Positions 1-44,899 of a stretch of 56,956 nucleotides of DNA are shown here, one piece after another (position 1 is the first letter of the stretch; each line of letters opens with the position of its first letter). The stretch is from a virus (lineage: Duplodnaviria > Caudoviricetes): the IMG/VR virus record IMGVR_UViG_3300036791_000660, positions 1 to 56,956 of that record; one strand, written 5' to 3'. The notes beneath the pieces were generated by a model. It was given only the letters and a program-made list of their open reading frames with translations. It ran no database searches and was not told the origin of the DNA. A program made the translations under genes and the position numbers.

Positions 1-545
1 CTAGCCCACCCCCGGCACGACACGGCAGGCGCGGCTCGGACTGGCGCGACAAGGATGGCGAGGAACGCGGGGCCGGGTCAGGCAACGCATGGTCTGGCGT
101 GGCAGGCCTGTCGAGTCTTGGCATGCCGAGACTTCTCCGGGCGTGACTTCGCTGCGCGAGGCGGGGCCGGGCATGGCAGGCGTGGCATGGTTTTGCGGGG
201 TTGGGCACGACGAGCCGAGCCAAGGCATGGCTGGTGCGGCTAGGCGAGGAAGCCAAGGGATGGCCAGCAGCGGCGCGGTGAGGCCGGCCACGGCACGGCA
301 GGTGCGGCGGGGCAACCCAAGGCGCGACGGGGGAGGCTTGGCTTCCCACGGTCCGGCACGGTGAGGCAGGCAAGTCGAGGCAAGACACGATGTGACATGG
401 CACGATGCGGTTCGGCAGGCGCGGCTAGGAGTTCGCGACGAGGTAGGCAAGGCGGGGCTGGGTGCGGCAGGTCTGGCGCGTCGAGGCGAGGGTCGCGGGG
501 CGTGGCGGGGCAAGGCACGCAATCACATGGCACGGCAGGCACGAC
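1..545 (+). ncRNA. Array of degenerate GGY-NN pentamer-repeat units (putative multi-guide RNA precursor), truncated by the window start
   Basis: 5-nt periodicity (ggcgc ggctc ggact ggcgc gacaa...). Units are delimited by GGCAGG at 24, 101, 175, 297, 365, 414, 466 and 534 and by GGCTGG at 229. No credible ORF. The repeat is seen directly; RNA status is inferred. Confidence 0.8.
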
Positions 546-548
546 ATC

Positions 549-597
549 TGCCAGTTACTGTCAGGCACTACTGACGGTCTATTGCCAACTTCTGTCA
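549..597. promoter_or_regulatory. Two TGCCA-N5-TGTCA operator-like sites (549-563, 583-597)
   Basis: The motif recurs at about ten intergenic or promoter-proximal positions in the window. Confidence 0.65.
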
Positions 598-610
598 ATA
601 AGCCTATATG
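582..610 (+). promoter_or_regulatory. sigma70-type promoter
   Basis: TTGCCA-17 nt-TATATG upstream of the Gly-rich gene. Confidence 0.65.
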
Positions 611-665
611 CCAAGCTCGCCACGCACAGGCGTTGGCGGTGAACAACCTTTCAGGAGACCTTGTG

Positions 666-1457
666 ATGTTGCGGCGTAAATTGTTGATGGCCGTCCTCGG
701 AGTCGTGGCGGCTGGTGGAGCGATGACGGCGGCCGATGCCCTCGCCAAAGGTGGTGGCGGCGGTTCCGGTGGCGGTGGTTCGGGCGGCGGTGGCGGCTCG
801 GGCGGTGGTGGTTCTGGCGGAGGAGGTTCCGGTGGCGGATCAGGAGGAGGTGGCGGCGGCTCCGGCGGAGGCGGGGGTTCCGGCGGTGGTAGCGGCAGCG
901 GGGGCGGTGGCTCCGGTGGTGGCTCGGGTGGCGGCGGAAGCGGCTCGGGCGGCGGCAGCGGCGGAGGCGGCGGATCGGGCGGTGGCGGCTCGGGCGGTGG
1001 CTCTGGCGGCGGTGGTGGCGGCTCGGGCGGAGGCTCGGGCGGTGGAGGCGGCGGCTCGGGCAGCGGCGGCGGAGGCGGCTCAGGCGGCGGAGGGTCGGGC
1101 GGCGGCAGCGGCGGCGGTGGTTCGGGCGGCGGTGGTAGCGGTTCTGGTGGCGGTGGGTCTGGCGGCGGCGGTGGCGGCTCGGGTGGCGGCTCTGGCGGCA
1201 GCGGTGGCGGTTCTGGTGGTGGCGGTTCCGGTGGCGGTGGCGGTGGCGGATCGGGCTCCGGTGGCGGCGATGCTGGCGGTGGCGGTGGCGGCGGTGCTTC
1301 TGGCGGTGGGAGTGCTGGTGGCGGGTCGAGTGCTGGGTCTAGCTCCGGGTCTGGGGCTGGCGCTGGTGCCGGGGCCTCTGCCTCGGGCGCCTCGGGTCCG
1401 TCAGGAGCCGACGGCGTCAACAACGTGAACGAGTTCTTCCGTTCGCGTCGTCGGTAG
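666..1457 (+). CDS. Exported Gly/Ser-rich low-complexity protein
   Basis: AGGAG RBS. N-terminal MLRRKLLMAVLGVVAAGG...ALA signal peptide, then a long GGGGS-type tract with varied wobble bases. Confidence 0.7.
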   Translation: MLRRKLLMAVLGVVAAGGAMTAADALAKGGGGGSGGGGSGGGGGSGGGGSGGGGSGGGSGGGGGGSGGGGGSGGGSGSGGGGSGGGSGGGGSGSGGGSGGGGGSGGGGSGGGSGGGGGGSGGGSGGGGGGSGSGGGGGSGGGGSGGGSGGGGSGGGGSGSGGGGSGGGGGGSGGGSGGSGGGSGGGGSGGGGGGGSGSGGGDAGGGGGGGASGGGSAGGGSSAGSSSGSGAGAGAGASASGASGPSGADGVNNVNEFFRSRRR

Positions 1458-1483
1458 GCTTGACGAGTCTTGTCAAGGGGCTT

Positions 1484-1511
1484 GATGGTGGGACCGATTT
1501 GTCCCACCATC
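1484..1511 (+). terminator. Hairpin after the Gly-rich gene
   Basis: GATGGTGGGAC-cgattt-GTCCCACCATC, perfect 11-bp stem; no strong U tract. Confidence 0.55.
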
Positions 1512-1516
1512 TTCCC

Positions 1517-1544
1517 TTGCCAACTCCTGTCACCGCCCTATATT
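1517..1544 (+). promoter_or_regulatory. sigma70-type promoter overlapping a TGCCA-N5-TGTCA site
   Basis: TTGCCA-16 nt-TATATT; operator-like site at 1518-1532. Confidence 0.6.
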
Positions 1545-1666
1545 CAGGACATGAACTTACCCCCGCATCTTTACCACGGCACGTCGAGCAGACGATTGCG
1601 CGCCATCCTGAAGCGCGGACGGAGTCCGCGCGGCGAGCGCAAGCCCGTGAAGAAGGAGAGAGCAGC

Positions 1667-1843
1667 ATGACAATCGTTGGCGTTCAAAAGTTGGTCACTG
1701 GCCAATTCGATCTCGTCCTTCGGCTCACCGAGAAGGAAGGCCTCGATCTGGCCAGCCTGATCGTCCAGCAGCAGGAACTCACACAGTCACCCCCACCACC
1801 ACCCTCAACCGAGGGCGGCACATCAGAGGAGCCGAAGTCGTGA
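1667..1843 (+). CDS. Hypothetical protein
   Basis: AGGAGAGAGC leader before ATG; stop overlaps the next start. Confidence 0.6.
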   Translation: MTIVGVQKLVTGQFDLVLRLTEKEGLDLASLIVQQQELTQSPPPPPSTEGGTSEEPKS

Positions 1844-2052
1844 ACATCTTCGCCCGAGGCTCGGACAACGTCCGGCTCAGCCGCAAGCATCGCATCACCA
1901 TCACGTCGGCGCTCAACCTCGCCGCCGACCAGTGGCTCGAAACGGCGGCCAAGGAGACGAACAACAAGGCGACGCTGCTCGCCTTGGCCGGCGAGGCGAA
2001 GGCGCTCGCCATCCTGCTTGAACCCGATGTCGAGGAGGAGCCGCAGTCATGA
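1840..2052 (+). CDS. Hypothetical protein
   Basis: Coupled start/stop overlaps; phage-like codon usage. Confidence 0.6.
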   Translation: MNIFARGSDNVRLSRKHRITITSALNLAADQWLETAAKETNNKATLLALAGEAKALAILLEPDVEEEPQS

Positions 2053-2252
2053 GCGAGTTAGCCCACTGGACGTTCCTGCTGAACATCGTGCTCACCATAG
2101 CCAACGTCGGCCTGACGTGGCGCGCCATACGCGGCGAGAAACAGCTAATTCGCGGCCTGCTGTGGATCATCTGCAAGCGCATCAAAATGGGACAGTTCTA
2201 CTCGCCGTTCGAGAAGACCATCGTCGTCAAGGCCATCGAGTACGTCGGATGA
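2049..2252 (+). CDS. Small membrane-anchored hypothetical protein
   Basis: GGAG RBS, ATGA overlap, N-terminal hydrophobic helix. Confidence 0.55.
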   Translation: MSELAHWTFLLNIVLTIANVGLTWRAIRGEKQLIRGLLWIICKRIKMGQFYSPFEKTIVVKAIEYVG

Positions 2253-2473
2253 GATCGCTCAGACGACACACCCGGCCGCTGCGCGCCGTCACGCCGATAG
2301 CCGCCGAGCTAGGATTCCGCTTCGATGGACTGACCCGGCGCGGCCACTTCAAATGGCGCAACCGCCATGGCTTCATGGTGATCACCGGCTCGAAGTTCGA
2401 TGAGCCGCGCAGCCTCAAGAACGCGACCACGCAATTCCGGCTGGCTGTCCACAGCCAACCTGCCATAAAGTAG
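2249..2473 (+). CDS. Basic hypothetical protein
   Basis: ATGA overlap with the upstream gene. Confidence 0.5.
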   Translation: MRSLRRHTRPLRAVTPIAAELGFRFDGLTRRGHFKWRNRHGFMVITGSKFDEPRSLKNATTQFRLAVHSQPAIK

Positions 2474-2491
2474 CAATCAGGAGCACCCCCG

Positions 2492-3415
2492 ATGATCATC
2501 AGCAAGCCCGGCTTCTACAACGAAGTGCCGGAAACCGACTATCACGGCGACCCCGTGAAAGACCTGTCGCTAAGCTCGGACGTGGTCAAGCTGATGGCCC
2601 TGAAGTCGCCGCGCCACGCCAAGCACGCCCACCCGCGCCTGACCGATCAGCCCAAGAAGGACGCGCCCGACCGCGCCATGTGCATCGGCAGCGCCGCTCA
2701 CAAGAGGCTGCTCGGCCGGGGCCGCCAGATCGACGTGCTGGCCTACGACGACTATCGCAAGAACGACGCCAAGGACCAGCGCGACGCCGCACTGGCAGCC
2801 GGCAACGTGCCGGTGCTGGCCGCCGACATGGAGAAGGTCGAGGCCATGGTGAAGGCGGCCGAAGAACAGCTTGCCGAACTGGGCCACGCCGACATCTTCA
2901 CCGGCGGCCACGCCGAGGTGACGATGGTCTGGCAGGAGAGGAAGAACGGCGTGTGGTGCCGCTCGCGGCCGGACTACATCCACGACGAGGCGCGCAAGGG
3001 CGGCCACATCATCGTGCCCGAACTGAAGACGACCGAGGGCTCGGCCCATCCCGACGACTGGTCCACGACCTGCGCCGGCATGGGCCACGACTATCAGGCC
3101 TGCCTGCGTGAGCGCGGCCTGAAGGCGCTGATCCCCGGCCTCAAGAGCGTCGAGACGCTGTGGGTCGTGCTGGAGCAGAAGCCGCCCTACGGCCTGTCGC
3201 TCGTCACCATGGACAACCAGACGCGGACCGAGATCAGCGACATGGTCGCCCTCGCCATCGAGGCATGGGACGGCTGTCTGAAGACCGGCCAGTGGCCGTC
3301 CTACGAGCGCGGCGTGCTCGACGCCAAGCCGTGGCGCTCGATGTCCACCGAGCTTCGCCGGCAGGCGCTGCTCGACCGTGTCGCCCACTGGCAGCGCCCG
3401 CTGGAGAGCGCGTGA
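2492..3415 (+). CDS. PD-(D/E)XK exonuclease, RecE/ExoVIII (DUF3799)-like
   Basis: YH..LSLSS, GSAAH, CRSRPD..ELKTT and DYQA motifs; followed by an AAA gene. Confidence 0.85.
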   Translation: MIISKPGFYNEVPETDYHGDPVKDLSLSSDVVKLMALKSPRHAKHAHPRLTDQPKKDAPDRAMCIGSAAHKRLLGRGRQIDVLAYDDYRKNDAKDQRDAALAAGNVPVLAADMEKVEAMVKAAEEQLAELGHADIFTGGHAEVTMVWQERKNGVWCRSRPDYIHDEARKGGHIIVPELKTTEGSAHPDDWSTTCAGMGHDYQACLRERGLKALIPGLKSVETLWVVLEQKPPYGLSLVTMDNQTRTEISDMVALAIEAWDGCLKTGQWPSYERGVLDAKPWRSMSTELRRQALLDRVAHWQRPLESA

Positions 3416-3441
3416 ACCTCAACCCGCCGACGGAGACTGTC

Positions 3442-3624
3442 ATGACCGAACAGCAGATCGAGACCGAGATCGACGCTGCCATTGATCAAGTCGAGGAGCG
3501 CTGCACGCCGGACAAGATGAGCAAGAGCGAGGCGGTCGATTACCTCGAAGGCGTGATCGCCCGCCTGCGCACCTCGGTCGAGGCGCTGGAGGAGGAGATC
3601 GGCAACGCAGGAGACGAGGCATGA
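3442..3624 (+). CDS. Small acidic hypothetical protein
   Basis: GGAG RBS; ATGA overlap with the next gene. Confidence 0.6.
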   Translation: MTEQQIETEIDAAIDQVEERCTPDKMSKSEAVDYLEGVIARLRTSVEALEEEIGNAGDEA

Positions 3625-11201: not shown

Positions 11202-11231
11202 ACCCGGAGGTTCCACCCTATATTCAGGGTG
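11196..11231 (+). promoter_or_regulatory. sigma70 promoter with -10 inside CACCCT-N6-AGGGTG
   Basis: TTGTAA-17 nt-TATATT. Confidence 0.75.
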
Positions 11232-11302: not shown

Positions 11303-11358
11303 CTCGACCCCCAGCCCCGCCCGGCCCTGAAAAGCCGAGGCGGGGTCGGGGCGTTGAG
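11303..11358 (+). repeat. Conserved intergenic hairpin, copy 1
   Basis: GCCCCGCC-CGGC-cctgaaaa-GCCG-a-GGCGGGGT with an extended outer stem. Confidence 0.7.
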
Positions 11359-11407
11359 AGAACCGGCGAAGCAGCCCGAACGTAGGGCACGGCCACTAGG
11401 AGCGAGC

Positions 11408-11884
11408 ATGGCGAACCTTTTTGAGAGCGAGACTTGCAGCCGCTGCGGTGGCACTGGCCACTACAGCTACTGCCAGATGCACGGCACCACGTGCTTCGGT
11501 TGCAGTGGTCGCAAGGTCAAGCTCACCAAGCGCGGCTACGCTGCGCAGCAGTGGCTGATCAAGCAGCAGTCGAAGCCGGTCAGCGAGCTTCAGGTCGGCG
11601 ACCTGATCCGCGAGGAGGATTTCTTTTCGAGCCTGATCGCGTGGATGCGAATCGACAAGATCGAGGTCGATGCCGACGGCAGGTTCAACCTGTCGGTGTC
11701 GTACCAGCGCAAGCACGAGACCACGCGCCGCGAGCTTGGCTTCAACGGCCTCCCGGCGACCGACACCAAGCGGGTCCGGCCCGGCACCAAGGCCGAGCTT
11801 CGCTGGCAGCAGATGGTCGGCCTCGCTTATCAGGCGACGCTCACCAAGGCCGGTACGGTGCGCAAGGCCCGCAAGGCCGCCTAA
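11408..11884 (+). CDS. Zn-finger (CxxCxGxG) hypothetical protein
   Basis: CSRCGGTG..CFGCSG; CTAGGAGCGAGC leader. Confidence 0.7.
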   Translation: MANLFESETCSRCGGTGHYSYCQMHGTTCFGCSGRKVKLTKRGYAAQQWLIKQQSKPVSELQVGDLIREEDFFSSLIAWMRIDKIEVDADGRFNLSVSYQRKHETTRRELGFNGLPATDTKRVRPGTKAELRWQQMVGLAYQATLTKAGTVRKARKAA

Positions 11885-14284: not shown

Positions 14285-14884
14285 ATGATACCGACAGAAG
14301 ACGTAGTGGCGGACACGCCCGCCCGGAAGATCGAGGCCGCCATGGCGCGCCACGGCCTCCTGATCACGGCCGAGTTCGTGCCGTACAGCCAGAGCCGCAA
14401 CAAGGACGAGGACAGGCCCTGCCTGAACTGGAAGGTCTCGCTGAAGCGCATGGCGTTCATCGGCGACACGTTCCGGCCGGGCTCGGAGCGCACCATCCTG
14501 ACGACCGACTTCTCGGCCGGCATCGCGCACTGCCCGAGCTACCGCAACAGCCGGCGCGACCAGTCGGTCGATGAGGCCGGCGCCATCGCGTGGGAGTGCG
14601 AGCACGGCCAGAGCCATGGCCTGTACCCGGCCGAAATGGGCAAGGGCTTCAAGCGGCAGGCGATCCTGCCCGACACCGCCAGCGTCATGCACTCGCTGGT
14701 GCTCGACTACGACGTGATGCGCTACCCGACCTACGAGGAGTGGGCACCCGAGGTCGGCTTCGACCCGGACAGCCGCAAGGGCGAGCGCGTCTACAACGCG
14801 GGACGCGAGATCGCGCACAAGATGTACGCCGCGCTCGGCGACAAGGTGATCGAGGACCTGCGCGCCGCCGGGGAGGACCTGTGA
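14285..14884 (+). CDS. Hypothetical phage protein
   Basis: TAGGAGAGAGC leader; YEEW..GFDPDSRKGE motif. Confidence 0.7.
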   Translation: MIPTEDVVADTPARKIEAAMARHGLLITAEFVPYSQSRNKDEDRPCLNWKVSLKRMAFIGDTFRPGSERTILTTDFSAGIAHCPSYRNSRRDQSVDEAGAIAWECEHGQSHGLYPAEMGKGFKRQAILPDTASVMHSLVLDYDVMRYPTYEEWAPEVGFDPDSRKGERVYNAGREIAHKMYAALGDKVIEDLRAAGEDL

Positions 14885-18110: not shown

Positions 18111-18470
18111 ATGAGTAGGAACTACAAGACCAAGATCGGCGTGCAGTGGGGCAGCCTTGCGCTCGCCAGCACGAACCTCTCCGACAAGGCCGAGACCCAG
18201 TTGCGGGTACGCCGGGTGAAGCCTTCGGACGAACCCGAGCACGTGCAGGTCGAGGTCGAGATCGTCCGCGTCGGCGCGATGCGGCGCGCCAGCTATCACG
18301 GCTACATCCAGCTTGACGCCAAGCAGGCCAAGGCACTGGCGACGGCGGTCAGCAAGGTCCAGCCGGACTACGACCGGGACTCGCCGCTCGCCGGCCTGCA
18401 AGCCGATTCGGACAAGGCGTGGGCCGAATTCTACGGCATCGACCCCAAGGATATGGCGAGGTTCCTGTGA
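18111..18470 (+). CDS. Hypothetical protein
   Basis: Coupled ORF. Confidence 0.55.
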   Translation: MSRNYKTKIGVQWGSLALASTNLSDKAETQLRVRRVKPSDEPEHVQVEVEIVRVGAMRRASYHGYIQLDAKQAKALATAVSKVQPDYDRDSPLAGLQADSDKAWAEFYGIDPKDMARFL

Positions 18471-18988
18471 AAAAATGTAACGTGAACCCCAAGCTTCTGA
18501 TCGACTTCTTCGACGGCACCGAGTTCGACTTCCTGTCCAATTTCCACCCGGCCTGCATCACGTGGGAGGGCAAGAAGTGGCCAAGCACCGAGCACGCCTT
18601 TCAGGCGGCCAAGACGACCGACGTGGCCTATGCCGAGCGCATCCGGCGCGCCCTGTCGCCGGGTCACGCCAAGTCGCTCGGCCAGCGGTCCTCGTTCATG
18701 CACTACGGCGTGGCGCTGCGGCCCGACTGGGACACGGTGAAGTACGACATCATGCTCGACCTGCTGCGGCTCAAGTTCGCCATCCCGTCGCTGCGCAAAG
18801 CCCTGCTGGCGACCGGCAACGCCAAGCTGGTTGAGGGCAACAGTTGGAACGACCGTGACTGGGGCGTCTGCGGCGAGGGCGCCAACAACCTCGGCCGCTC
18901 GCTGATGCTGGTGCGCGCCGAGATCAGGGCCGAGATCGCCGAGGCCAATCTGGAATATCTGACAGGAGAGAAGCATGGGACTCTTTAG
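18467..18988 (+). CDS. NADAR (YbiA-like) family ADP-ribose hydrolase
   Basis: FLSNF..STEHAFQAAK..RPDWD..KF..LLATG..LVEG..DRDWG..G.NNLGRSLM.VR. Confidence 0.9.
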   Translation: MKKCNVNPKLLIDFFDGTEFDFLSNFHPACITWEGKKWPSTEHAFQAAKTTDVAYAERIRRALSPGHAKSLGQRSSFMHYGVALRPDWDTVKYDIMLDLLRLKFAIPSLRKALLATGNAKLVEGNSWNDRDWGVCGEGANNLGRSLMLVRAEIRAEIAEANLEYLTGEKHGTL

Positions 18989-23212: not shown

Positions 23213-23285
23213 TCCGGGCGACGGTATATATACCTCGCCCGGCGCCATGGTTGACCTGACAGGTTACGGCACTTATGGTCCAGCT

Positions 23286-23570
23286 ATGCTCGACCACGAA
23301 CACAAGCTGCCGATGAATCTGTGCCCGGCCTGCGGCTACGCCGCCGACCGGGCGACCGGCATCACCGGCAAGGAGAAACCCGAGATCGGCGACTACTCGG
23401 TCTGCATCAACTGCGGCGCGCTGCTGCGCTTCGGTGTCGGGTTCACGCTGGAGCACGTCAAAGATGTCAACGATCTCCTGCGCACGTGGAACAAACGGGC
23501 GATCATCAAGGCCAGCCAGTCGTTCATCAGAGCGCGGGGACCGATCCCCAAAAACGAGACGAAACACTAG
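23286..23570 (+). CDS. Zn-finger hypothetical protein
   Basis: CPACG..CINCG. Confidence 0.55.
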   Translation: MLDHEHKLPMNLCPACGYAADRATGITGKEKPEIGDYSVCINCGALLRFGVGFTLEHVKDVNDLLRTWNKRAIIKASQSFIRARGPIPKNETKH

Positions 23571-24418: not shown

Positions 24419-24868
24419 TCAGGCGAAGCCGTAGCGCATGCCCGAGTGGTCGATGGTCATCGCCATGTACCTCGGCGACTCGGCGATGCCGAGATGCACC
24501 CAGCTACCGTGCCCGAAGTGCTCGTGAATCAGTTGGTCGATTCCGAGATCGCGCATCAGCGGCTGCAGCCGCTGGCAGATCGCCAACGGTGAGCCGAAGC
24601 CGGGCGCGATGAAGTCGGCGGCTTGGCCGGTGGCGTGGGCGCTGTTCACCGCGCCGCCGATCTCGGGATGGCTGTTGAGCGCGGGCGAGCGGTAGCCCGA
24701 GGTGATCTGGATGGGGTGACCCAGCACCTCGCGCACGTTCTCCAGACATTGCGCGAGGTCCGTCAAGTTCTCCAGCACCTCGGGCGTCGGGGTGTTGTCG
24801 ATGCCGTGCTTGGCGGCGGTCGCGCTCGCCGTCAATTCTGCCAAGGTGAAATGCGCGGAGAGGTTCAT
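24419..24868 (-). CDS. Endolysin, peptidase M15A family
   Basis: HFTLAEL..ITSGYRSPALN..GGA.NSAH..G.AADF..WVH. Confidence 0.9.
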   Translation of the reverse strand: MNLSAHFTLAELTASATAAKHGIDNTPTPEVLENLTDLAQCLENVREVLGHPIQITSGYRSPALNSHPEIGGAVNSAHATGQAADFIAPGFGSPLAICQRLQPLMRDLGIDQLIHEHFGHGSWVHLGIAESPRYMAMTIDHSGMRYGFA

Positions 24869-32845: not shown

Positions 32846-34534
32846 CTAGCCCTGCACCACGGAGATTTGCGAAGTCGAGGTGAAGAAGTACGACTGCGGA
32901 TCGCCGAAGATCAGGAAGGTGCCGGCGCTGGGCAGCGTGCCGATGCCGTTGATCGACACCGCGAAGGTCAGCACCGAGATGAAGGTCGGGCCGAGCACGT
33001 TCTCGACGGCGGTCTGGAACACGTCCTCCATCACCAAGACGTTGAGCGGCTGGCCGACGATCACCGAGTTCACGTAGTCGGCGAGCGCCGGGGCGGCGAG
33101 TTGGGCGATGGCGGCGGCCGAGATGAAGTTCGGCGAGTCGGTGTTCCACGTCACCGTCATCGTCACCGTCTGCTGCGGCGGCACGACGAAGTTCACCACG
33201 TAGGTGTCGGGGTAGTCGGTGATCGTGACCGCGAGGTTGCGGTTGTTGGGCGTCACCACGCCGCCCGACACGTAGGCCGGCAGGCCGGTCGAATCGAAGT
33301 TGGCGATGCCCGCCTGAAGCTGGCCGAGCACCGTCTCGGCGCCGGGATTGGTGGCCAGCGGGAAAGTGATGGTGGTGCCCGACGCGGTGGTCGCCACGAA
33401 GGTGCCGTTCCAGCCGGCCGGCGTCGAGCCCGCCAGCGCGAAGGTCGAGCCCGGCGTCACGTTGTGCGCCACCAAGGTGGTCGCCGTGGCGACGCCAGCG
33501 GCCCACGCCAGCGACGCCAACTGGTTGGCCGGATAGGCCGTGCCAAGCTGGAAAGTCTTCTCCGAGGGCACCGCGAGGATGGCGTGGTTGCCGTTGAAGC
33601 CCACCGGGTTGACGCCGGCGAGCGTGATCGGCTGGCCGACCAGATAGCCGTGGTTGAGGTCGGTCGTGACCACCGCCGGGTTGGCGTTGGTGATGTTGGT
33701 GACGCTGACCGTCGAGCCGACCAAGTTCGAGATGTCGAACAGCGCAGTGTAGATCGCGTTGGCGACATCGTAGGGATCGCCGCCGCCCACGATGATCATC
33801 CAGCCACCGGCCGGGCCGGGCTGCTGCTGGATTCCAATCAGGCGCGATTGGACTCCGGGCACGTTCTCCAACAGCGTGCGCAGGTAGCGCGGCATGCCCT
33901 GTGAGGCCGCCAGCCCCGCCTGAAGCACCCGCGCCCGGTACATGCTCTCGGTCTCGGCGTCGGTGCCGGGGACGCCGGCCTCGGGATTAACGACGGTCAG
34001 CGTGAAGCCGGTCGGCGGCGGCGTGATCAGTTGCGTCACCACCCCCGGCGGCACGCTGAAAGAGCCGGCCTGCGTGGCGAGGGCGAACAGCGGATCGCTC
34101 TGGCCGGACTGGCCGATGATGCCGCCATCCCGCAGCGCATATTGGAAGTTGCCGTCGGAGACGATGAAGCCCTTGCCGATCACGAAGCCCGGCAGGCCGG
34201 AGAACACCACCAAGACGCTGGTGTTGCTGGCCGTACCGGGAACTACGCCATAGACCTCGCCAAGCTCGGCGAGGATGAAGGCGTTGCAGCCGAACGGCGT
34301 CAGCGAGTTGACGGTCTCGACGCGCGCCAGATCGGCCAGCACCAGCGACTGCACGTCGGTGCTGACGATGTCCTCGACCAGCGAGCCCGGCAAATTTCCG
34401 CTGAAACCCGGATTCGTCGCCGACACGCCGGACACCACCTCCTCGCGCAGCGTGAGAGGCGGCGTCGGCACCAGCCCGGCCGGGCCGATGACAGTCGGAA
34501 GTTCGCTCCCCGATGGCGGGATCGGATCGGCCAT
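32846..34534 (-). CDS. Baseplate J-like protein
   Basis: NLPGSLVEDI, AETESMYRARVLQA and GGGDPYDVA.AI motifs; synteny. Confidence 0.8.
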   Translation of the reverse strand: MADPIPPSGSELPTVIGPAGLVPTPPLTLREEVVSGVSATNPGFSGNLPGSLVEDIVSTDVQSLVLADLARVETVNSLTPFGCNAFILAELGEVYGVVPGTASNTSVLVVFSGLPGFVIGKGFIVSDGNFQYALRDGGIIGQSGQSDPLFALATQAGSFSVPPGVVTQLITPPPTGFTLTVVNPEAGVPGTDAETESMYRARVLQAGLAASQGMPRYLRTLLENVPGVQSRLIGIQQQPGPAGGWMIIVGGGDPYDVANAIYTALFDISNLVGSTVSVTNITNANPAVVTTDLNHGYLVGQPITLAGVNPVGFNGNHAILAVPSEKTFQLGTAYPANQLASLAWAAGVATATTLVAHNVTPGSTFALAGSTPAGWNGTFVATTASGTTITFPLATNPGAETVLGQLQAGIANFDSTGLPAYVSGGVVTPNNRNLAVTITDYPDTYVVNFVVPPQQTVTMTVTWNTDSPNFISAAAIAQLAAPALADYVNSVIVGQPLNVLVMEDVFQTAVENVLGPTFISVLTFAVSINGIGTLPSAGTFLIFGDPQSYFFTSTSQISVVQG

Positions 34535-34569
34535 GGACAATACCTGTCAATTCGTGTTTGGTGGGTGAA

Positions 34570-34651
34570 GCCGCGCCACGGCAAGTCCCGGCGGGGCTAG
34601 GCACGTCGAGGCAAGGTCTGGCCCGGCGGGGTTCGGCAAGGCACGGCAGGC
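34570..34651 (+). ncRNA. Stand-alone GGY-NN repeat cassette A (putative guide RNA)
   Basis: 15 in-phase pentamers ending GGCAGGC; intergenic and antisense to the late genes. Confidence 0.8.
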
Positions 34652-35044
34652 TTAGAGTGGGATCGGCACGCTCACGTCGATCTTCAGGCCAGCATGAGTG
34701 ACGATGTTGATGCGGTAGACCGGCGTCGTCGGATCAGGGACTTTGGCGATGATCAGCGAGGCGAACTGCGCAGCGAATCGCTTCTGGGTCATCACGACTT
34801 CAAAATCGGGGAAGACCTGCTGCAACACGCTGTAGGCCGCCGCGATGCCCCAGTCGGCATAAAACGGGCTCTCGCCTGCGTTCAGCAGCAGCACCTGCGC
34901 CAGCGCCGTCAGCATCACCATGTCGTTGAAGCCCTTGGCATCGGTCGTGACCACGACCCACTTCTTCGGCCCCTTGTTGAAGCTGATGTTGCTGCCGGGT
35001 GGACCGCCGAGCGGCGTGGCCGGGATGCGGCCGTAGGTCCTCAT
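34652..35044 (-). CDS. Baseplate wedge subunit (gp25-like)
   Basis: MRTYGR..L.LN.GESPFYADWGI; between spike and J. Confidence 0.65.
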   Translation of the reverse strand: MRTYGRIPATPLGGPPGSNISFNKGPKKWVVVTTDAKGFNDMVMLTALAQVLLLNAGESPFYADWGIAAAYSVLQQVFPDFEVVMTQKRFAAQFASLIIAKVPDPTTPVYRINIVTHAGLKIDVSVPIPL

Positions 35045-35706
35045 GGGACGACCGGGCCGCTGGTGCCCGAGCCGGGCTGCACATTCTGGTGGGTGTGCGC
35101 CGGGAAGACGTGGGTGATGTTGTCGATCAGGGTGCCAGCGGACGTGATGTCGAGGCCCATGCCTTGGAAGTTGAGGTGGAAGCCGCTGTCATCGACCCGC
35201 ATCAACACCTGCCCCTTCCATGTGACGGTGAGGCCGGTCTTGGTGTCGAGGTTGAAGATGATCTGCGAGTTCTCGTCGCGCAGGATCACGCCGTTGGGGC
35301 CGTAGATCAGCGTCTTCTCGGGATCGTCGGTCGGCGTGAAGTTGACGTTGCCACACGGGAAGAACACGCCGGTCGAGAGGTTGCCCGGCGGCGCGTAGGA
35401 CGCCTTGCCTTTGCCGAGCCCCGACATCTCGCCCATGTAGTAGTCGGCGCTGAGCACCAAGCCCTTGGTGCCCTTCTTCAGAGGCCAGCGACAGAACTCC
35501 GGGCCGTACACCGGCATCTTGATCTTGGGCAGCGTCCACTGCGACACGGTCTCGAACTTCACCGTGACGATGGTGCCGGTGGGATCGACCTCATCGACCG
35601 ACGCCGGGTGCGACTTCTGGAGCGCCTGATGGAAGCCGCTCAGCCGGTTGTCGGTGAGGCGGTTCAGACCTTGGATGGCTGGAAAGCGCTGTTGCGTCAG
35701 GTTCAT
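35041..35706 (-). CDS. Baseplate central spike
   Basis: OB-like N-terminus; C-terminal HxH (AHTHQNVQPGSGTSG) metal-binding tip. Confidence 0.8.
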   Translation of the reverse strand: MNLTQQRFPAIQGLNRLTDNRLSGFHQALQKSHPASVDEVDPTGTIVTVKFETVSQWTLPKIKMPVYGPEFCRWPLKKGTKGLVLSADYYMGEMSGLGKGKASYAPPGNLSTGVFFPCGNVNFTPTDDPEKTLIYGPNGVILRDENSQIIFNLDTKTGLTVTWKGQVLMRVDDSGFHLNFQGMGLDITSAGTLIDNITHVFPAHTHQNVQPGSGTSGPVVP

Positions 35707-35715
35707 GGTTCTACC

Positions 35716-36849
35716 TCAGAGGGTGGTGCCCTGCTGGACCGGCGGCGCGTCCTGCTTGGTCAGCGCGAACAGGTCGAAGGCCGTGGTCCACGCCTCGCCG
35801 GTGGCCTGCCGGAAGCGGCCGTTGTGGTGCATCTCCTGCACCCGCCAGACGCCTTGGAAGACCGACTTGTCGCGCGACGGCGTCTGGATCGCGGCGATGC
35901 CGGCGGCCTTGGGGTTCGGCGTGGTCGTGTAGGGCTGTTGCAATTCCGTCGGCAGCTTCACGAAGTCGAGGCACTGGATGTCGCCGCGCATCATGGTGAT
36001 GATGCTGATCGTGTAGGCGTTCTTCCATGCCGGCTGGCCGATCAGGTCGTTGAACACGATCTGCTTCGGCTTATCGACGCTGCTGCCGCCGGTCGGCGAC
36101 TCGTTCTGGGCGGCGTCGCTGACATAGATCGTCTTATCCTGCGTGAGGAACTGCACGCCGTAGTAGGGCGAGCCGTTGACGCCCTTCAGGCTGGAGAACG
36201 GACTGCCGGGCAGGGTGCCGTTGGTGTACTTCCTGATCCAGTCGCCCATCTCCGACAGGTTCTGGGCCTGATGGAGGACTTGCCCCGGTGTCTGGAGGTC
36301 GTCGCTGACCTTGCCTTTCACCGTGTACGCACCCGCGCCATAGGTGCCATCGACCATCTGCCGGATCGCGCCGACGAAGTCGAAACCGGGACTCCAGTTG
36401 AAGGTCAGCGGCTGGCCGACGAAGCTCTTGGGGTCGATGCTGTCGGCGATCAGCGGCACGATGGTGAAGTCGATGAAGGTCTGGTTGCCGACCCAGTTGC
36501 CCGAGCTTTGCCAGATCGTGCCCTTGACCAAGAGGTCGGGCAGGTACTGGAGCGACAGCGGAAAGTCGCCCTTGGTCATGCCGGCCCAGATCGAGATGGT
36601 CGCGCCTTGCAGGTCGGTGTCCTGCGCCACCTCCCGAATATCGACGCCATAGATGCGAATCCGTCCGCCTTGGCGCGGCAGGTCGTAGGTAAAGACCGGC
36701 AGGTCGATCACGATGTCGAGCGCCGACGAGTTCGGGCTGCCGTTGATCACCGAGGTGTAGGACGCATCCTTGACGCTGGCGGGAAGCGACGACGACTGCC
36801 AGACCTCGGTCTGGCCGTGCTTGGTTATCGCAATTTTGTAATATCTCAC
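35716..36849 (-). CDS. Baseplate hub protein
   Basis: GTG start overlapping the upstream stop; DLIGQPAW, MRGDI and H.GRFRQ..W.T motifs; synteny. Confidence 0.7.
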   Translation of the reverse strand: MRYYKIAITKHGQTEVWQSSSLPASVKDASYTSVINGSPNSSALDIVIDLPVFTYDLPRQGGRIRIYGVDIREVAQDTDLQGATISIWAGMTKGDFPLSLQYLPDLLVKGTIWQSSGNWVGNQTFIDFTIVPLIADSIDPKSFVGQPLTFNWSPGFDFVGAIRQMVDGTYGAGAYTVKGKVSDDLQTPGQVLHQAQNLSEMGDWIRKYTNGTLPGSPFSSLKGVNGSPYYGVQFLTQDKTIYVSDAAQNESPTGGSSVDKPKQIVFNDLIGQPAWKNAYTISIITMMRGDIQCLDFVKLPTELQQPYTTTPNPKAAGIAAIQTPSRDKSVFQGVWRVQEMHHNGRFRQATGEAWTTAFDLFALTKQDAPPVQQGTTL

Positions 36850-37340
36850 GGGCTGATCTCGAACTGGTTGTTGGGCAGCCGGTAGATCAGCGAAGACTCG
36901 AAGAACGGCTTGGCGAGATCGAGCATGGCCGAGATCGTCCCGAGCAGAGTCGCTTGGCCGGGATTGGCCGCCAGTTGGTACTGGAAGGTGGTCGGGCCGG
37001 TGATGAAGACCATCGCGTCGGCCACGTTGTAGGCATCGGGCAGGCAGCCGGCGATGGTGAGCCTGAAGGTGTCGCCGATGCGCAGGTCCTGCGGCACCTC
37101 GGTGGTGCCCGAGACGCGGCCGTTGGCCCACGCCAGCGTCTGAATCTGCAGCCCGGTGCGCGTGCCGGTGAGCGCGCGATGGAAGATCAGGTTGCCGCCG
37201 AGGTCTTGCAGCGTGAGATACCAGCGCTGGCCGAAGATGTTCCACGTCACGCTGGCCGAGTAGACCTGCCCGTCGAGCGTCGGGTTGAAGGCGAACGGCG
37301 GGGCGCCGGGGCCGGGCTGGAAGTCGATGATCGTGGCCAT
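36846..37340 (-). CDS. Baseplate protein with an inserted beta module
   Basis: F.F.PTLDG..Y...VTWNIFGQRWY. Confidence 0.65.
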   Translation of the reverse strand: MATIIDFQPGPGAPPFAFNPTLDGQVYSASVTWNIFGQRWYLTLQDLGGNLIFHRALTGTRTGLQIQTLAWANGRVSGTTEVPQDLRIGDTFRLTIAGCLPDAYNVADAMVFITGPTTFQYQLAANPGQATLLGTISAMLDLAKPFFESSLIYRLPNNQFEISP

Positions 37341-38092
37341 CAGTGCGCCGCCGAATAGGACGGAGTGCCGACGACGGGCAGCGGCGTGTTGGTCGCGACC
37401 GGCACGATGGCCGACGTGCCCGGCGGGGCGCCTCCGGCGACGGCGCTGGTCTGCAGGCCGCTGAGCGGCGGCTGGCCGATCACCTGCTTGCCGCCGTTGG
37501 CGGCGTCGAGGATGTCGTTCAACTGGCTGGTGATGCCCTGCGCGTCGTCCAGCGTGATCAGCGGCTTCTCGAAGTCGAGCGCCCACGAGGTCTGCACCTG
37601 CTTGGTGCCCGACGAGGAAGTATCACGCATCGAGCGCATCACGCAGTTGGCGTAGAGGAACGACGGCGTCAGGCAGTGATAGAGGCCGCCTTGGCGGTTG
37701 TGCTGCTCGAACGCCGTCTGCAACAGCATCATCACCGGCAGCTTGGTGAACATGCCGAGCGCACCGCGTGCCGGGCAGATCATCTGGTAGGTGATCGACA
37801 GCGGCTTGGTCAGCGCCGAGTTGGCGGCCGTCACTTGATTTGCGAACGGGTAGTGGGCGATGTCCTGATCAATCATCGTCGCGCCGGGCATCGGCGTGTA
37901 ATGGCAGAAGCAGTTGTCGAGGCTGATGCCCTCGGGCGCGGTCAGCAGGCCCGTCGCGAAGTTGACGGCTTCTGTCAGCGCGATGATCGGCATCATCTGG
38001 AACGGAAAGTTCTTGAAGATGCCGCCCTTGAAGATGATCGGCGAAAGCTCGAAGGCGAGCTTCCATGCGTTGTAGCCCACGGTGCCAGCCAT
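37340..38092 (-). CDS. Tail-tube initiator / Dit-like protein
   Basis: Immediately after the tape measure; YPFANQVTAAN and W.LDFEKPLI motifs. Confidence 0.65.
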   Translation of the reverse strand: MAGTVGYNAWKLAFELSPIIFKGGIFKNFPFQMMPIIALTEAVNFATGLLTAPEGISLDNCFCHYTPMPGATMIDQDIAHYPFANQVTAANSALTKPLSITYQMICPARGALGMFTKLPVMMLLQTAFEQHNRQGGLYHCLTPSFLYANCVMRSMRDTSSSGTKQVQTSWALDFEKPLITLDDAQGITSQLNDILDAANGGKQVIGQPPLSGLQTSAVAGGAPPGTSAIVPVATNTPLPVVGTPSYSAAH

Positions 38093-38100
38093 CGCTCACC

Positions 38101-39972
38101 TCACAGCGGGAACGGTGGCGGCGCGAACGCCGCCTGTTCGAGCGACGCCACGACCGAGCCGCCAGTGGCATCGTTGATCGTGACGCCGGCACCGCCGGCC
38201 GGCGCGCCGCCGGCGTACATGTTGCCGCCGAGCGCACGCTCGCGCTGGGCCACCATCTGGGCGACGCTGACGCCGGATACCTTATCGGCCCAGCGTGACG
38301 ACACGCTGTAGGGCTGGCCGCTAGCCCACATCGAGAACACGTCGCGGCTGGTGTGATACTTGTTGAGATATTCGTTCACCATGGCGGACGCGATCTGGTC
38401 CTGCATGCCGGGGTTCGACAGGTACTCTTGCGGCGACACGGTGCGGCCGAGCACGCGGCGGCTCATGGTGGCCAGCGTGCCCGGCATCAGTTGATAGGCG
38501 CCGAGCGCACGGCCTTGCCCCGGCACGTTCGCGCCGAGGATGCCGTAGTTGCCGCTGCTCTCGAACTGCTTGATGACCTGAAGAATCTTCTCCGGGCTGG
38601 CGACGATCTCGCCCTCGTGGACGCGGGCGTCCATGTCGTGCGGCACCACGCCGCCTTCTTGGTAGGCCCCGGTCGTGCCGCCCGACGAACTCGACGGCTG
38701 ACCCGACGCCAGCCAGTCCTGATAGGGCATCGGATTGATGCCGAGCTTCATCGACTCCCGCTGGTAGGCGTCATAGCGCCGCTTGTTGATGCGGTCGCGC
38801 TGCCAGCCCGGCATCTCCTCGGTGGTCGGCATGAAGCCGGGATTGCTGCGCAGCAGGTCGGGCGTGCTGGTGGGCGCGGCCGGCGGCGTGCCCGGCGCAC
38901 CCGTGAACCGCGCGATGAACTCGTAGATCGCCTTGCCGGCCTCAAACAGGCCCTTGGCGAACTTCTCGATGTAGTCCGGCAGCTTCTCCATGAACTCCTT
39001 GAACTCGGGCCGCTGCACCCACTCGCCGATCTTCTTCACGAACACCTCGGCGAAATGCTCCAGCGCCGGCAGGAGCGGCGTCAGGCCCTCGGCGATCAGC
39101 TTCCGCAACCGGCCGGTCACATCTTCCAGCGCGTCCTTGAACTCGCTCCACGCCTTCTCGGCGCCCTCGCGGATGCCGTACTTGCCGACGCCCGCCGTGA
39201 CGCTCTGTTCCTGCTTGGTGATGTCGGCGTCGCTCATGCCGACGGCGCGCTGGACATCCTGCGTGCTCAGCACGCCGCTCAGCCCCATCGCCTCCAGTTG
39301 CCCGGCCCACATGCCCTTGTTGACGCCGCCGAACTTGGACTTCAGCGCCCGGTTGAGGCCCCGGATGTTCTGGAACGCGCCGGCCTCGGGATTGAGCCCG
39401 AGCGCCCGCATGCCGATGTAGGCCGGGCTGCCGATGTCGGCCTGCGCGCCCGCGAAGGCGTCCATCAGCCCTTCGACGTTCATGCCGGTGCCGCCCAAGC
39501 CGATGCGCAGTGACTCGATCTGGCCGGGCGCCATGCCGAGCCCGGCGCGCGTCGCCCGCGTGCCCCGGATCGCATCGGCGAGCTTGTCGAGGCCAAATAG
39601 CAGGCCGCCGCCACCAACCGCACCCGAGATGCCGGCCCACCGCATGAAGCCGAGGCTGGCGTCCTTGATGTGGATCGCGAAGCTCTTGGCGTGCTCGCGC
39701 AGCTTGCCCCACGACACCACCGAATCGCGGGCGTGCACCGCCACGTCCTTGTGGTGGGCGACGATCTGGCGGCCGAGGCTGGCCTGCGCCGTCATCGCCG
39801 CCGTCATCCTCGACATATTTTCCATCGCCGCGCGCTGCTCGGCGGTGACGTTCTTCCAGTCCTTCGGCGTCTGCGCCAGCATCTTGGAGTATTTGGCGAA
39901 GGCGTCTTGGAAGCGCTTGAACTGTTGCTCGTTGACTTCAATGTCAACGACTGATTTTGCGTTTACTGCCAC
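38101..39972 (-). CDS. Tape measure protein with a C-terminal lysozyme-like domain
   Basis: GTG start 5 nt after GGAGG; helical body; FESSGNY..ALGAYQLMP.T..QD motif. Confidence 0.8.
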   Translation of the reverse strand: MAVNAKSVVDIEVNEQQFKRFQDAFAKYSKMLAQTPKDWKNVTAEQRAAMENMSRMTAAMTAQASLGRQIVAHHKDVAVHARDSVVSWGKLREHAKSFAIHIKDASLGFMRWAGISGAVGGGGLLFGLDKLADAIRGTRATRAGLGMAPGQIESLRIGLGGTGMNVEGLMDAFAGAQADIGSPAYIGMRALGLNPEAGAFQNIRGLNRALKSKFGGVNKGMWAGQLEAMGLSGVLSTQDVQRAVGMSDADITKQEQSVTAGVGKYGIREGAEKAWSEFKDALEDVTGRLRKLIAEGLTPLLPALEHFAEVFVKKIGEWVQRPEFKEFMEKLPDYIEKFAKGLFEAGKAIYEFIARFTGAPGTPPAAPTSTPDLLRSNPGFMPTTEEMPGWQRDRINKRRYDAYQRESMKLGINPMPYQDWLASGQPSSSSGGTTGAYQEGGVVPHDMDARVHEGEIVASPEKILQVIKQFESSGNYGILGANVPGQGRALGAYQLMPGTLATMSRRVLGRTVSPQEYLSNPGMQDQIASAMVNEYLNKYHTSRDVFSMWASGQPYSVSSRWADKVSGVSVAQMVAQRERALGGNMYAGGAPAGGAGVTINDATGGSVVASLEQAAFAPPPFPL

Positions 39973-39992
39973 GACACCCTCCATTGAGGGCA

Positions 39993-40094
39993 GAGGATGG
40001 CAGCCGTGAAGCCACCATCCTCCCTTGCCGTGCCTCGACATGCCTCAACACGACACGCCCTGCATTGCAGCGCCTTGCCACGTCGCGCCATGTC
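39993..40094 (-). ncRNA. Stand-alone GGY-NN repeat cassette B (putative guide RNA) with 3' hairpin
   Basis: 14 in-phase pentamers (40094 down to 40025), then a GAGGATGG...CCATCCTC hairpin; TTGACA at 40129-40124. Confidence 0.8.
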
Positions 40095-40255
40095 TGATGC
40101 CAGAGACCGCATTGGACAGGAGGTGTCAATCATGGCCTACCCCCGACGTAGCAGTGCCACGAGATGGCGGTGCCGGTAGTCGTGCGCGGTGCGCCACTCG
40201 AACTCGGGCGTGCGGTCGGCGAACACGTCCACGAAGCCCTCGGTGACGATCCAGT

Positions 40256-40831
40256 CTAAACAGGAATGGAAGACGGATTCGCCGTCTCGCCAATACTCAC
40301 GGCCGGCGTCGATGTCGGCAAAGAACTGCGGTAGTCCGTACAGGTGGAGGAGGTGATCCGCGAACCGGACGCCGCGAACAGCGGGTAGATCATGTCCCGG
40401 CGCTCCGAGGGCGTGTGCGCCCACGAAGCTCCCGTAAAAAAAACCAGTTGGTTCCTGATGTTCTGCGCGTCGTCGTCGTTGATCAGCTTGTCGCTGATCG
40501 ACTTCTCGAAGGGCAGCATCTGCCAGCCGCCGCTGCCATCCGGGGCAAGGACGTTGGTCAGTCGCCAGATTTCGGCAAGGAGGTGTTGCTCGACGTTCGG
40601 GCGGTTCATCTTGGCCGCCGCGTCTTGCAGCATCAGGAGGCCCACGCGGGGCATCATGAAGGGGGCGATGCCTTCCTCGTACATGGCCGACATCATGCGG
40701 CTCAGCACGAGGAAGTTCGCCTCGTAAATCTCGCGCCTGACCGGCGTCGAGTGGACGAAGATGTCTTGGCCTTTTTCGTCCGTCACCGTGAAGACGATGT
40801 TCAGCTTGCGGTCGATCTGCGGGTCTGCCAT
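40256..40831 (-). CDS. Tail assembly chaperone
   Basis: Between tube and tape measure; a -1-frame ORF (to 40137) overlaps its 3' part. Confidence 0.7.
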   Translation of the reverse strand: MADPQIDRKLNIVFTVTDEKGQDIFVHSTPVRREIYEANFLVLSRMMSAMYEEGIAPFMMPRVGLLMLQDAAAKMNRPNVEQHLLAEIWRLTNVLAPDGSGGWQMLPFEKSISDKLINDDDAQNIRNQLVFFTGASWAHTPSERRDMIYPLFAASGSRITSSTCTDYRSSLPTSTPAVSIGETANPSSIPV

Positions 40832-40887
40832 GGGGTCTGCCTTTCTGTCTATGCCCTCATTTGAGGGCGTACCTAACTAGAGTCTAA

Positions 40888-41340
40888 TTAGGTCTCCCAC
40901 AGGAGCGAGTTGATCAGGACGTAGCCGCGCATCGAGACGCGGAAGCCGGCATCGGTGCCGGAGAACGCCTGCTCGGCGACGTTCTCGATGGCGCAGTTGA
41001 TCAGTTGGTAGATGCCGATGCCGGGCGAGTTGAGCGGCACGTCGGGGTGAACCTGCCCGTCGCCGATCATCGCATCGCTCTCCATCTTGGCCTTGTAGAG
41101 TTGGGCAAGCTGCTGGGTCTTCAGCAGCGCCATCGTCATGGTGAACATCTGGTAGGGCTCGGGGCTGGTGACCGCGCCGGTCATCGACGGCAGGAACACC
41201 GTGGTGCCGCCGTCGAGCGCGAGCCGGATGCCTTCGGCCCCCAGATAGGACGCCGTGACGTTAAGGTCGGGGAAGTCGGGCCAGATGACCGACGCCCGCA
41301 GCCGGTTCAGCGAGCCTTGCGCAACAAGCGGATTCGCCAT
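40888..41340 (-). CDS. Tail tube protein
   Basis: MANPLVAQGSLNRLRAS..LP.MTG.VTSPEPY; follows the sheath. Confidence 0.75.
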   Translation of the reverse strand: MANPLVAQGSLNRLRASVIWPDFPDLNVTASYLGAEGIRLALDGGTTVFLPSMTGAVTSPEPYQMFTMTMALLKTQQLAQLYKAKMESDAMIGDGQVHPDVPLNSPGIGIYQLINCAIENVAEQAFSGTDAGFRVSMRGYVLINSLLWET

Positions 41341-41358
41341 GTCTGTCTCCCTTCAGCC

Positions 41359-43008: not shown

Positions 43009-43027
43009 GGAGGAGGTCTCCTGTCGA

Positions 43028-44720: not shown

Positions 44721-44768
44721 CACTGCACCTCATTGACAAATGTTGGCGGATGCGGTCAGTCGTCGGCA

Positions 44769-44899
44769 GCCACGGCCAGTCGCGGGATGGCAAGGCCTGT
44801 CACGGCAGCGCTAGGCAGCGCCCGTCGTGGCTCGCCACGGCAAGGCGAGTCGGGGAAGGCACGGCACGGGGAGGGACGGCTCAGCGATGGGCCGTCCCT
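44769..44899 (+). ncRNA. Stand-alone GGY-NN repeat cassette C (putative guide RNA) with 3' hairpin
   Basis: 17 in-phase pentamers (44769-44853), a short tail, and an AGGGACGGC...GCCGTCCCT hairpin; TTGACA at 44733. Confidence 0.8.

Follow-up and report, generated by a model that had tools for sequence, protein, structure and literature searches.

A soil myophage with a staggered array of probable VIPR-type guide RNA genes, one of which appears to spell motif I of SNF2 helicases

The closest described counterpart of the repeat arrays considered here is VIPR (Viral Interference Programmable Repeat). As set out in the main parts of the preprint that describes it, a Cas7-like Vipr protein of ~20 kDa works with guide RNAs, termed vrRNAs, that are made of 9 to 16 GGY/NN pentamers; the two variable letters (NN) pair with double-stranded DNA, and one target base per repeat, usually the codon wobble, is skipped (bioRxiv 10.64898/2026.04.26.720920). 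The protein is a RAMP with an RRM core, a thumb and a G-loop. In nature the guides are aimed at competing phages, at satellites and at prophages, satellites carrying their own vrRNAs are mentioned, and none of the guides matches its own contig at 80% or above. The array types include staggered arrays, in which vrRNAs overlap by 1 nucleotide (nt; legend of fig. S18), as well as loci with a single vrRNA; internal degeneracy of the repeats is frequent; and the type II RNAs that were studied experimentally have a conserved pseudoknotted tail of ~40 nt. The preprint covers 664 loci, and the string "mycobacter" is absent from its main text (bioRxiv 10.64898/2026.04.26.720920). We analyzed the IMG/VR record IMGVR_UViG_3300036791_000660, a single linear virus record of 56,956 bases (IMG/VR class linear; complete by the CheckV estimate) that is referred to in its entirety as the window, and in which an earlier note, made from the letters alone, had pointed to a repeat array at the left end. 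Our reading, to which we give a probability of about 0.78 on the sequence comparisons below, is that the left end of this soil myophage of ~57 kb holds eight or more VIPR-type vrRNAs in a staggered array, that four solitary vrRNA genes occur elsewhere in the genome, and that unit 8 of the array spells motif I of SNF2 helicases.

The window resembles VIPR in its phage-borne vrRNAs of GGY/NN pentamers, in the 1-nt skip at the codon wobble, in targets that lie in rival phages, and in the lack of self-targets. Unlike VIPR, it has no recognised vipr or vap gene, and its four solitary vrRNA genes are scattered in the structural module, where three of them adjoin a version of their guide's site that belongs to the phage itself and matches poorly, two of these sites being demonstrated targets in related phages. 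Unlike in VIPR type II, the main array has no tails between its units, which simply abut as they do in the staggered arrays of VIPR, and three of the solitary genes close with plain hairpins. Since vipr is a defining component and the searches for it in the window gave nothing, we file these arrays as working like VIPR guide RNAs, that is, as a variant with an unseen protein partner and not as a complete VIPR system. In such a variant, each vrRNA would be a run of 10 to 17 pentamers. A Cas7-like Vipr protein would grip the GGY triplet of each pentamer and leave its NN letters to pair with double-stranded DNA, one target base being skipped per repeat. Since the skipped base is the codon wobble, a guide would read the first two letters of successive codons and would tolerate synonymous escape, and its binding would silence the target. 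Transcription, processing, Vipr binding and repression are inferred.

The main array has a period-5 repeat that is far beyond chance. Identity at lag 5 was 0.505 in 1-540, versus 0.245 to 0.304 at lags 1 to 4 and 6 to 8, and a dynamic-programming parse divided the array into 111 repeats, 95 of them of 5 nt and 16 of 4 nt, with a GGC start in 55. Seven of the 4-nt repeats consist of GGCA followed directly by GG, and these, together with a GGCT joint, give the unit boundaries, such that units 1 to 8 hold 10 to 16 pentamers each. Within those eight units, 65 of the 105 repeats start with GGY and the remainder are mostly one-letter variants. The fourth pentamer position is mostly a purine, and GA, AC, GC, AA, AT and GG abound among the NN letters.

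The code that would connect such guides with their targets could be examined in related phages. The NN letters were taken from the window by position with scripts and compared with stored DNA, in this case a related-phage set of 97 sequences (2.08 Mb). With a 1-nt skip, solitary guide 44769 (16 NN) reached a maximum of 28/32, with 9 sites at 80% or above and 31 at 24/32 or above, and solitary guide 34570 (also 16 NN) reached a maximum of 26/32, with 3 and 28 such sites. Skips of 0, 2 or 3 nt gave maxima of 20 to 22 for both guides and no site at either threshold, and 100 shuffles per guide gave maxima of 23 for guide 44769 and 24 for guide 34570. Guide 34570 matches the sense strand at codons ~38 to 53 of baseplate wedge homologues (in-frame translation ATNPGYTANLPGS), and guide 44769 matches phrog_6560 homologues (in the window, gene 44900-45406) in antisense orientation, over their final ~16 codons (translation SFVDTGLYESSFIAWV). 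The skipped base is the codon wobble for both guides, and their sites are homologous, conserved coding sites across the related phages. At the level of sequence comparison, the specificity for a 1-nt skip, its wobble phasing and the structural-gene targets of these two guides are thereby demonstrated. The same dinucleotide code, with NN as codon positions 1 and 2 and the third position skipped, had been proposed in the earlier note and is identical to the published VIPR rule; the note's further suggestion, that the guides are aimed at conserved coding motifs, agrees with the retention of the two sites at 24/32 or above in 28 and 31 places.

When 12 guides were compared with their own contig, with the arrays masked, none reached 80% and the maximum was 74%; by the measure used for VIPR, self-targets are lacking. 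Together, these matches are consistent with guides aimed at close competitors, from which the phage's own alleles would escape. Stretches of 12 repeats that run across units 5 and 6 (330-405) show a collinear match, at 35306-35347 (minus strand), to baseplate gene 35041-35706 of the phage itself, with up to 20/24 versus a random maximum of 18. The self match at 35306-35341 disappears when whole single units are used; it is marginal, and it may reflect chance or be a trace of the guides' origin.

The four solitary arrays are of the same kind as the main array, contain 13 to 22 pentamers, and each occupies a gap between late genes. The matching gaps of the nearest relative measure only ~10 to 60 nt, which indicates that the solitary arrays are insertions, and a GGY/NN-type array was absent from 80 of 80 related IMG/VR loci and from 5 of 5 whole related genomes. 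Two regions flagged as arrays in the whole related genomes proved to be proline-rich coding sequence. G+C-rich hairpins of 10 to 14 bp lie downstream of three of the four solitary arrays, two of them sharing the same stem. An ATTGACA motif, without a good -10 element, lies upstream of three of the four; that these motifs are promoters is a guess, and a scan of 33000-51000 for promoters and terminators found none. The array at 49.5 kb (within 49488-49650) separates genes 49649-50623 and 48546-49490, which match positions 6-308 and 317-544, respectively, of phrog_6216, a family with weak protease, portal and NUDIX hints. This insertion thus falls between two halves of what is elsewhere a single family.

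Two of the solitary arrays sit ~10 to 150 nt from the phage's own diverged copy of the attacked site, the distance being ~150 nt for guide 34570, and guide 40104 agrees at 25/34 with the opening codons (39929-39979) of the gene that lies downstream of it. A familiar parallel is offered by the free-standing homing endonuclease genes of T-even phages: a selfish targeting gene stands beside a resistant allele and attacks the sensitive allele of relatives. We propose this only as an analogy of arrangement, in which the phage's own resistant allele would likewise stand beside a targeting gene, with an RNA guide and a DNA-binding protein as the agent.

Unit 8 of the main array is the guide to which the earlier note had drawn attention. 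The parse of 470-533 given in the earlier note, 13 repeats with a single 4-nt one, was reproduced letter for letter, and its numbering of the unit agrees with the cut between GGCA and GG, which places unit 8 at 470-537. Cut as 5, 5, 5, 5, 4, 5, 5, 5, 5, 5, 5, 5 and 5 nt, the stretch yields CT GC GA GA GT GG GT GG AA AC AT AT AC, and reading these pairs as the first two letters of codons gives L-A-[DE]-[DE]-V-G-V-G-[KN]-T-[IM]-[IM]-T. The first pentamer of the unit shares a G with the preceding GGCA, in agreement with the overlap by 1 nt that vrRNAs show in staggered arrays. PF00176 (the SNF2 domain) has no match in the window itself, and unit 8 has none in the related-phage set.

Within SNF2 genes, the best site for unit 8 was always motif I, in codon phase (LAD.. 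G.GKT), as the earlier note had anticipated. A score of at least 21/26 was obtained in 3 of 10 bacterial loci, with 22, 22, 21, 20 and 20 in five true SNF2 genes; in 12 of 27 loci that were picked, by their Pfam family, out of 151 genomes belonging to one class (maximum 22/26); and in 29 of 80 IMG/VR SNF2 loci (best 24/26, in L153, then 23/26), the last rate not being unbiased, since those viral loci were retrieved by a motif I peptide pattern. With the 14th NN included, the best match was 25/28, in G011, a 563-amino-acid (aa) helicase on a viral contig; a related-locus search with that helicase returned only itself. No perfect target for unit 8 was present in the SNF2 locus sets searched. Shuffled versions of unit 8 scored at most 19 in the SNF2 loci and skips of 0, 2 or 3 nt at most 17, and units 1 to 7 reached 80% in none of the 80. 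Six-frame peptide matching of unit 8 against the window and the 80 loci gave nothing at 8/11 or above, the same as with shuffles. We regard unit 8 as a well-supported candidate for a guide to SNF2 motif I, and the gene that it is aimed at in nature most probably encodes an SNF2-family helicase and is carried by a competing phage, a prophage or a defence island.

Which of these carriers is meant matters, since the earlier note had taken the array for a panel of anti-defence guides. One possibility, which we hold to be rather doubtful, is that unit 8 brings Vipr to the motif I site in a defence helicase gene of the host (DISARM DrmD, BREX BrxHI, Hma HmaA or Zorya ZorD), whose silencing would let the phage escape. 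Hosts could hardly evade a guide that reads a site conserved universally and that tolerates wobble changes, and a PADLOC run on eight open reading frames (ORFs) that match unit 8 did find defence genes among them. HmaA gave two strong matches, of 1670 bits (G012) and 1247 bits (L128), one over the full length (2-1172 of 1176) and one on a partial ORF cut by the locus end (1-854 of 1176); BrxHI gave one full-length match of 1431 bits (G014, 67% G+C); and DrmD gave one full-length and two partial matches, with scores that include 1086 bits (in the provirus G015) and 588 bits (G013). These defence-type ORFs match unit 8 at 22 to 23 of 26. The RapA-like ORF had weak PADLOC scores only, and G011, the best NN match of all, had generic SNF2 scores only.

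RapA-like housekeeping genes (L127 and 7 of the 27 Pfam-chosen loci) match unit 8 equally well, at 80 to 85%, and motif I is too conserved for a match of 80 to 89% to separate defence helicases from others. Moreover, the two guides whose targets could be demonstrated are directed at structural genes in rival phages (the baseplate wedge gene and phrog_6560), which speaks against a panel of anti-defence guides as it was stated, and the natural targets given in the parts of the VIPR preprint considered here are other mobile elements. In-phase SNF2 matches do occur, and the code proposed in the earlier note stands; as they fall in defence helicases and in RapA-like or phage-type helicases alike, they neither establish an anti-defence role nor speak decisively against one. 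We also raise, as a tentative idea that we think improbable on balance, a linked pair of functions, in which unit 8 would silence host SNF2 defence genes and the solitary vrRNA genes would be selfish "allele-killer" cassettes that spread with the immune allele by recombination, in the way of free-standing homing endonuclease genes.

It is alternatively possible that unit 8 is a real vrRNA and its likeness to SNF2 is coincidental or a decayed remnant, the true target, if any, being another gene. The lack of a perfect SNF2 match in the sets searched would be expected in that case; the letters of the NN pool favour acidic residues, Gly, Lys and Thr; the parse contains one irregular repeat; and many motifs were open to recognition by a reader. 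Set against this are ten codons in a row that agree, the ceiling of 19 for shuffles, and a simulation in which none of 4,000,000 random 13-repeat guides, drawn from the NN pool of units 0 to 7, equalled the observed scores of 22/26 (RapA-like motif I) and 24/26 (L153), the maximum being 20/26, a figure that covers one motif and carries no correction for the number of famous motifs that could have been recognised. We consider coincidence or decay unlikely.

The same type of array also occurs in a second set of phages. A blastn search with the main array returned one similar stretch, in Mycobacterium phage Donkeykong; a blastn search with the Donkeykong array gave no match, not even to that array, presumably through low-complexity filtering. 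Eight fetched Cluster F records, Donkeykong among them, carry a GGCNN array of 206 to 350 nt, with GGCAGGC punctuation, directly upstream of gp49, a protein of ~200 aa (phrog_4652). The arrays differ in length by pentamer blocks while their flanks are 94 to 98% identical, and their annotation is inconsistent: a hypothetical protein, an extension of the next gene over the array, or a blank. Brocalys and Quico have no gene on the array, and Zizzle, Philus and DRBy19 have differing ORFs there. DosHalletts (L089) lacks the array and has a gene with a ParB-like nuclease domain in its place. The gp49 family comprises 3,906 representatives at E<=0.001; its profile matches PDB entry 36pp, "SUSP1 Vipr protein", at E=0.0044 and in collinear positions, and the predicted model of gp49 (pLDDT 84.3) matches Csm3/Cas7 subunits with Foldseek E-values down to 2.8e-6 (76 matches at E<=0.001). 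By these profile and model comparisons, the Cluster F array type adjoins a Vipr relative.

The Cluster F loci (Donkeykong gp48/gp49) are like the window in their GGCNN array, GGCAGGC punctuation and a CACGACA-type irregular stretch. They differ in that their array lies upstream of a Cas7-like Vipr relative of ~200 aa, whereas none is recognised in the window, and in host and phage type, the siphophages of Mycobacterium being unrelated to this soil myophage in both respects. A more distant likeness is to the Cas7-bound crRNA of class 1 CRISPR (clustered regularly interspaced short palindromic repeats) systems, in which a RAMP backbone holds the guide and periodically unpairs bases, in line with the match of the gp49-family model to Csm3/Cas7. 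A class 1 CRISPR guide has a contiguous spacer, with every sixth base flipped out; in the window's guides, by contrast, three of five guide bases would be unpaired and one of three target bases skipped, and the window has neither CRISPR repeats nor cas genes. A search for literature on pentanucleotide or GGC repeats in phages found none, and the repeats treated in the part of the Tweety paper considered here are 12-bp coding repeats, a different feature.

Several results weigh against our reading of the window, in addition to the way in which the 80 viral loci were chosen. A hidden Markov model of the gp49 family, built from 150 representatives, gave a best E-value of 1.5 on 613 window ORFs, and HHalign on 331 window ORFs gave a best probability of 5%, in searches that a divergent RAMP would escape, as it would any sequence profile, and on a contig that starts inside the array. 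Three window-specific ORFs had no Vipr match among PDB sequences, and the predicted model of one window ORF, 14285-14884, had a pLDDT of 42.6 and was unusable; the ESM Atlas placed that ORF in viral clusters without names only. Solitary guides 40104 and 49550 had no significant match in the related-phage set, and neither did any 12-repeat stretch of the main array (maximum 20/24 versus 19 at random). GGY is retained in only 62% of the repeats. Two letters of unit 8 hang on the 4-nt repeat GGGT (490-493), which would give TC instead of GT if it were read as GGGTC; the best match of unit 8, at 25/28, is imperfect and lies on a contig of 50% G+C, versus 66% for the phage; and units 1 to 7 do not converge on the five contigs that were fetched whole. 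The vipr gene of this phage may lie in DNA left of base 1 that was not assembled, or the protein may be supplied in trans by another element.

With no vipr found in the window and the main array at the end of the contig, it could also be argued that the arrays are repeated sites at which a multimeric protein binds RNA or DNA; a TRAP-like ring could sit there, for instance, or the repeats could act as an RNA sponge, centromere or packaging site. TRAP sites are triplets plus spacers, a pattern that a 5-nt period with a fixed triplet resembles. Such sites would not, however, predict NN letters that match the coding DNA of related phages in phase and at a 1-nt skip only, and the search for a TRAP-like protein gave none, with nothing closer in Pfam than a sub-threshold Anti-TRAP zinc ribbon (19.3 bits versus a cut-off of 32); we hold this explanation to be very improbable. 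TRAP- or CsrA-like protein-binding RNA, Rho rut sites (on the opposite strand), R-loop origins and primase sites, as well as centromere or pac repeats and decayed microsatellites, were dropped as candidates because the NN letters match coding DNA in phase. That the arrays encode pentapeptide-like protein repeats, the assumption behind GenBank annotations of the copies in mycobacteriophages, is hardly credible: the arrays are open in several frames and some phage records do annotate a hypothetical protein over them, but a 5-nt period with 4-nt repeats shifts the frame every few repeats, the annotation differs between Cluster F records, and the array lengths differ by pentamer blocks between nearly identical flanks.

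Table. Coordinates of the arrays, their units and associated features (window positions unless a locus is named).
Feature	Position	Strand	Details
Staggered vrRNA-type array	1..545	+	~111 pentamers GGY/NN; punctuation GGCA then GG; partial unit 0 and units 1-8
Partial unit 0	4-27	+	cut between GGCA and GG
Unit 1	28-104	+	cut between GGCA and GG
Unit 2	105-178	+	cut between GGCA and GG
Unit 3	179-232	+	joint GGCT at 229 closes the unit
Unit 4	233-300	+	cut between GGCA and GG
Unit 5	301-368	+	cut between GGCA and GG
Unit 6	369-417	+	cut between GGCA and GG
Unit 7	418-469	+	cut between GGCA and GG
Unit 8	470-537	+	14 NN; decodes to LA[DE][DE]VGVG[KN]T[IM][IM]T[HQ]
Array end, two short possible hairpins, then sigma-70-like promoter for the next gene	538..600	+	TTGCCA, 17 nt, TATATG; direct reading
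Own allele of the site for guide 34570	34374..34421	-	wedge gene codons ~38-53; 22/32 match
Solitary vrRNA-type array	34570..34652	+	16 pentamers, terminal GGCAGGC; in 116-nt gap upstream of baseplate wedge gene
Solitary vrRNA-type gene	39992..40130	-	ATTGACA 40130-40124; ~17 pentamers 40110-40020; 13-bp hairpin 40023-39992
Solitary vrRNA-type gene	44732..44898	+	ATTGACA 44732-44738; ~22 pentamers 44760-44875; hairpin 44873-44898, stem GGGACGG/CCGTCCC
Own allele of the site for guide 44769	44906..44953	+	3' end of gene 44900-45406 (-); 22/32 match; ~10 nt past hairpin
Solitary vrRNA-type gene	49517..49646	+	ATTGACA 49517-49523; ~13 pentamers 49549-49619; hairpin 49623-49646, stem GGGACGG/CCGTCCC
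Cluster F array	L081:1310-1660 (Donkeykong), L082-L088		upstream of gp49

The genome in which the arrays lie has a G+C content of 65.7%, and its PHROG matches to a tail sheath, a baseplate wedge and a baseplate hub identify the phage as a myophage. Early genes, among them a PDDEXK exonuclease and an AAA_24 (Sak4-like) ATPase, are on the plus strand on the left side, and late genes are on the minus strand on the right. The closest sheath proteins among 5.8 billion proteins searched are only 69% identical, and the phage thus has no close relative in the databases; a megablast search of 1-25000 against phages gave no match, a related-locus search with the Sak4-like protein found none, and an exact 30-mer scan of metagenome contigs returned 0 matches. 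No Rfam family matched 1-3000 at E-values up to 1, and no tRNAs were found. The sequence is present in two soil-metagenome runs, one of which is probably its source, and the contigs from them that fall on the array are short unitigs. A Logan unitig of run X1 that covers 1-146 carries 31 further letters leftward, which shows that the DNA continues to the left of base 1. In a second soil study (run X2), a contig covers 137-390 (array units 2 to 5) with 5 differences in 254 nt, and the other pieces of that contig, on 2333-3558, diverge more, for example with 15 differences in 264. The main array may be better conserved than its surroundings, or it may be shared among strains.

A scan of 1-2000 for promoters and terminators found only the promoter at 1517-1544, a twin of the one that follows the array. 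The early promoters (575-603, 1517-1544 and ~11205-11230) are alike beyond their hexamers, in the form TTGCCAACT.CTGTCA... then CCTATAT, and the -10 context CCCTATATTCAGG is repeated at 1535 and 11215. The window-specific ORFs beside the main array are tiny or glycine rich. One of them, ORF 666-1457 (plus strand, 263 aa), has a signal-peptide-like start followed by near-pure Gly/Ser repeats of period 3; Pfam and PHROG gave no match for it, five related genomes lack a homologue, and it draws many unrelated metagenome contigs in read mapping. Another window-specific ORF, 11354-11884 (plus strand), has a Cys-rich zinc-ribbon start with sub-threshold matches to Anti-TRAP, namely the Pfam one given above and one to PDB entry 2bx9 (E=0.059), and this start is probably a DnaJ-like zinc finger. 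Further to the right are a NADAR domain protein (18419-18988; E=9e-24), a Lar-like restriction-alleviation zinc protein that remains below threshold (23247-23570; 24.6 bits versus a cut-off of 28.6) and a Peptidase_M15 endolysin (24419-24868).

VIPR was described only in June 2026, and the window confirms its 1-nt-skip code independently, by computation alone, in a soil myophage that is unrelated. The Cluster F records, which belong to phages of a well-studied culture collection with an easy host, carry such arrays beside a Cas7-like protein, annotated as hypothetical or left blank. Compared with the main parts of the VIPR preprint, the window adds guide genes that are scattered among structural genes beside their own escape alleles, and guide arrays in a contig without a recognisable vipr gene, which may act in trans. 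It also adds a guide apparently aimed at the universally conserved motif I of SNF2 helicases, with which a use of VIPR against host defence helicases becomes testable. If an anti-defence role of unit 8 is true, it would represent a use of VIPR against host immunity that those parts of the preprint do not describe.

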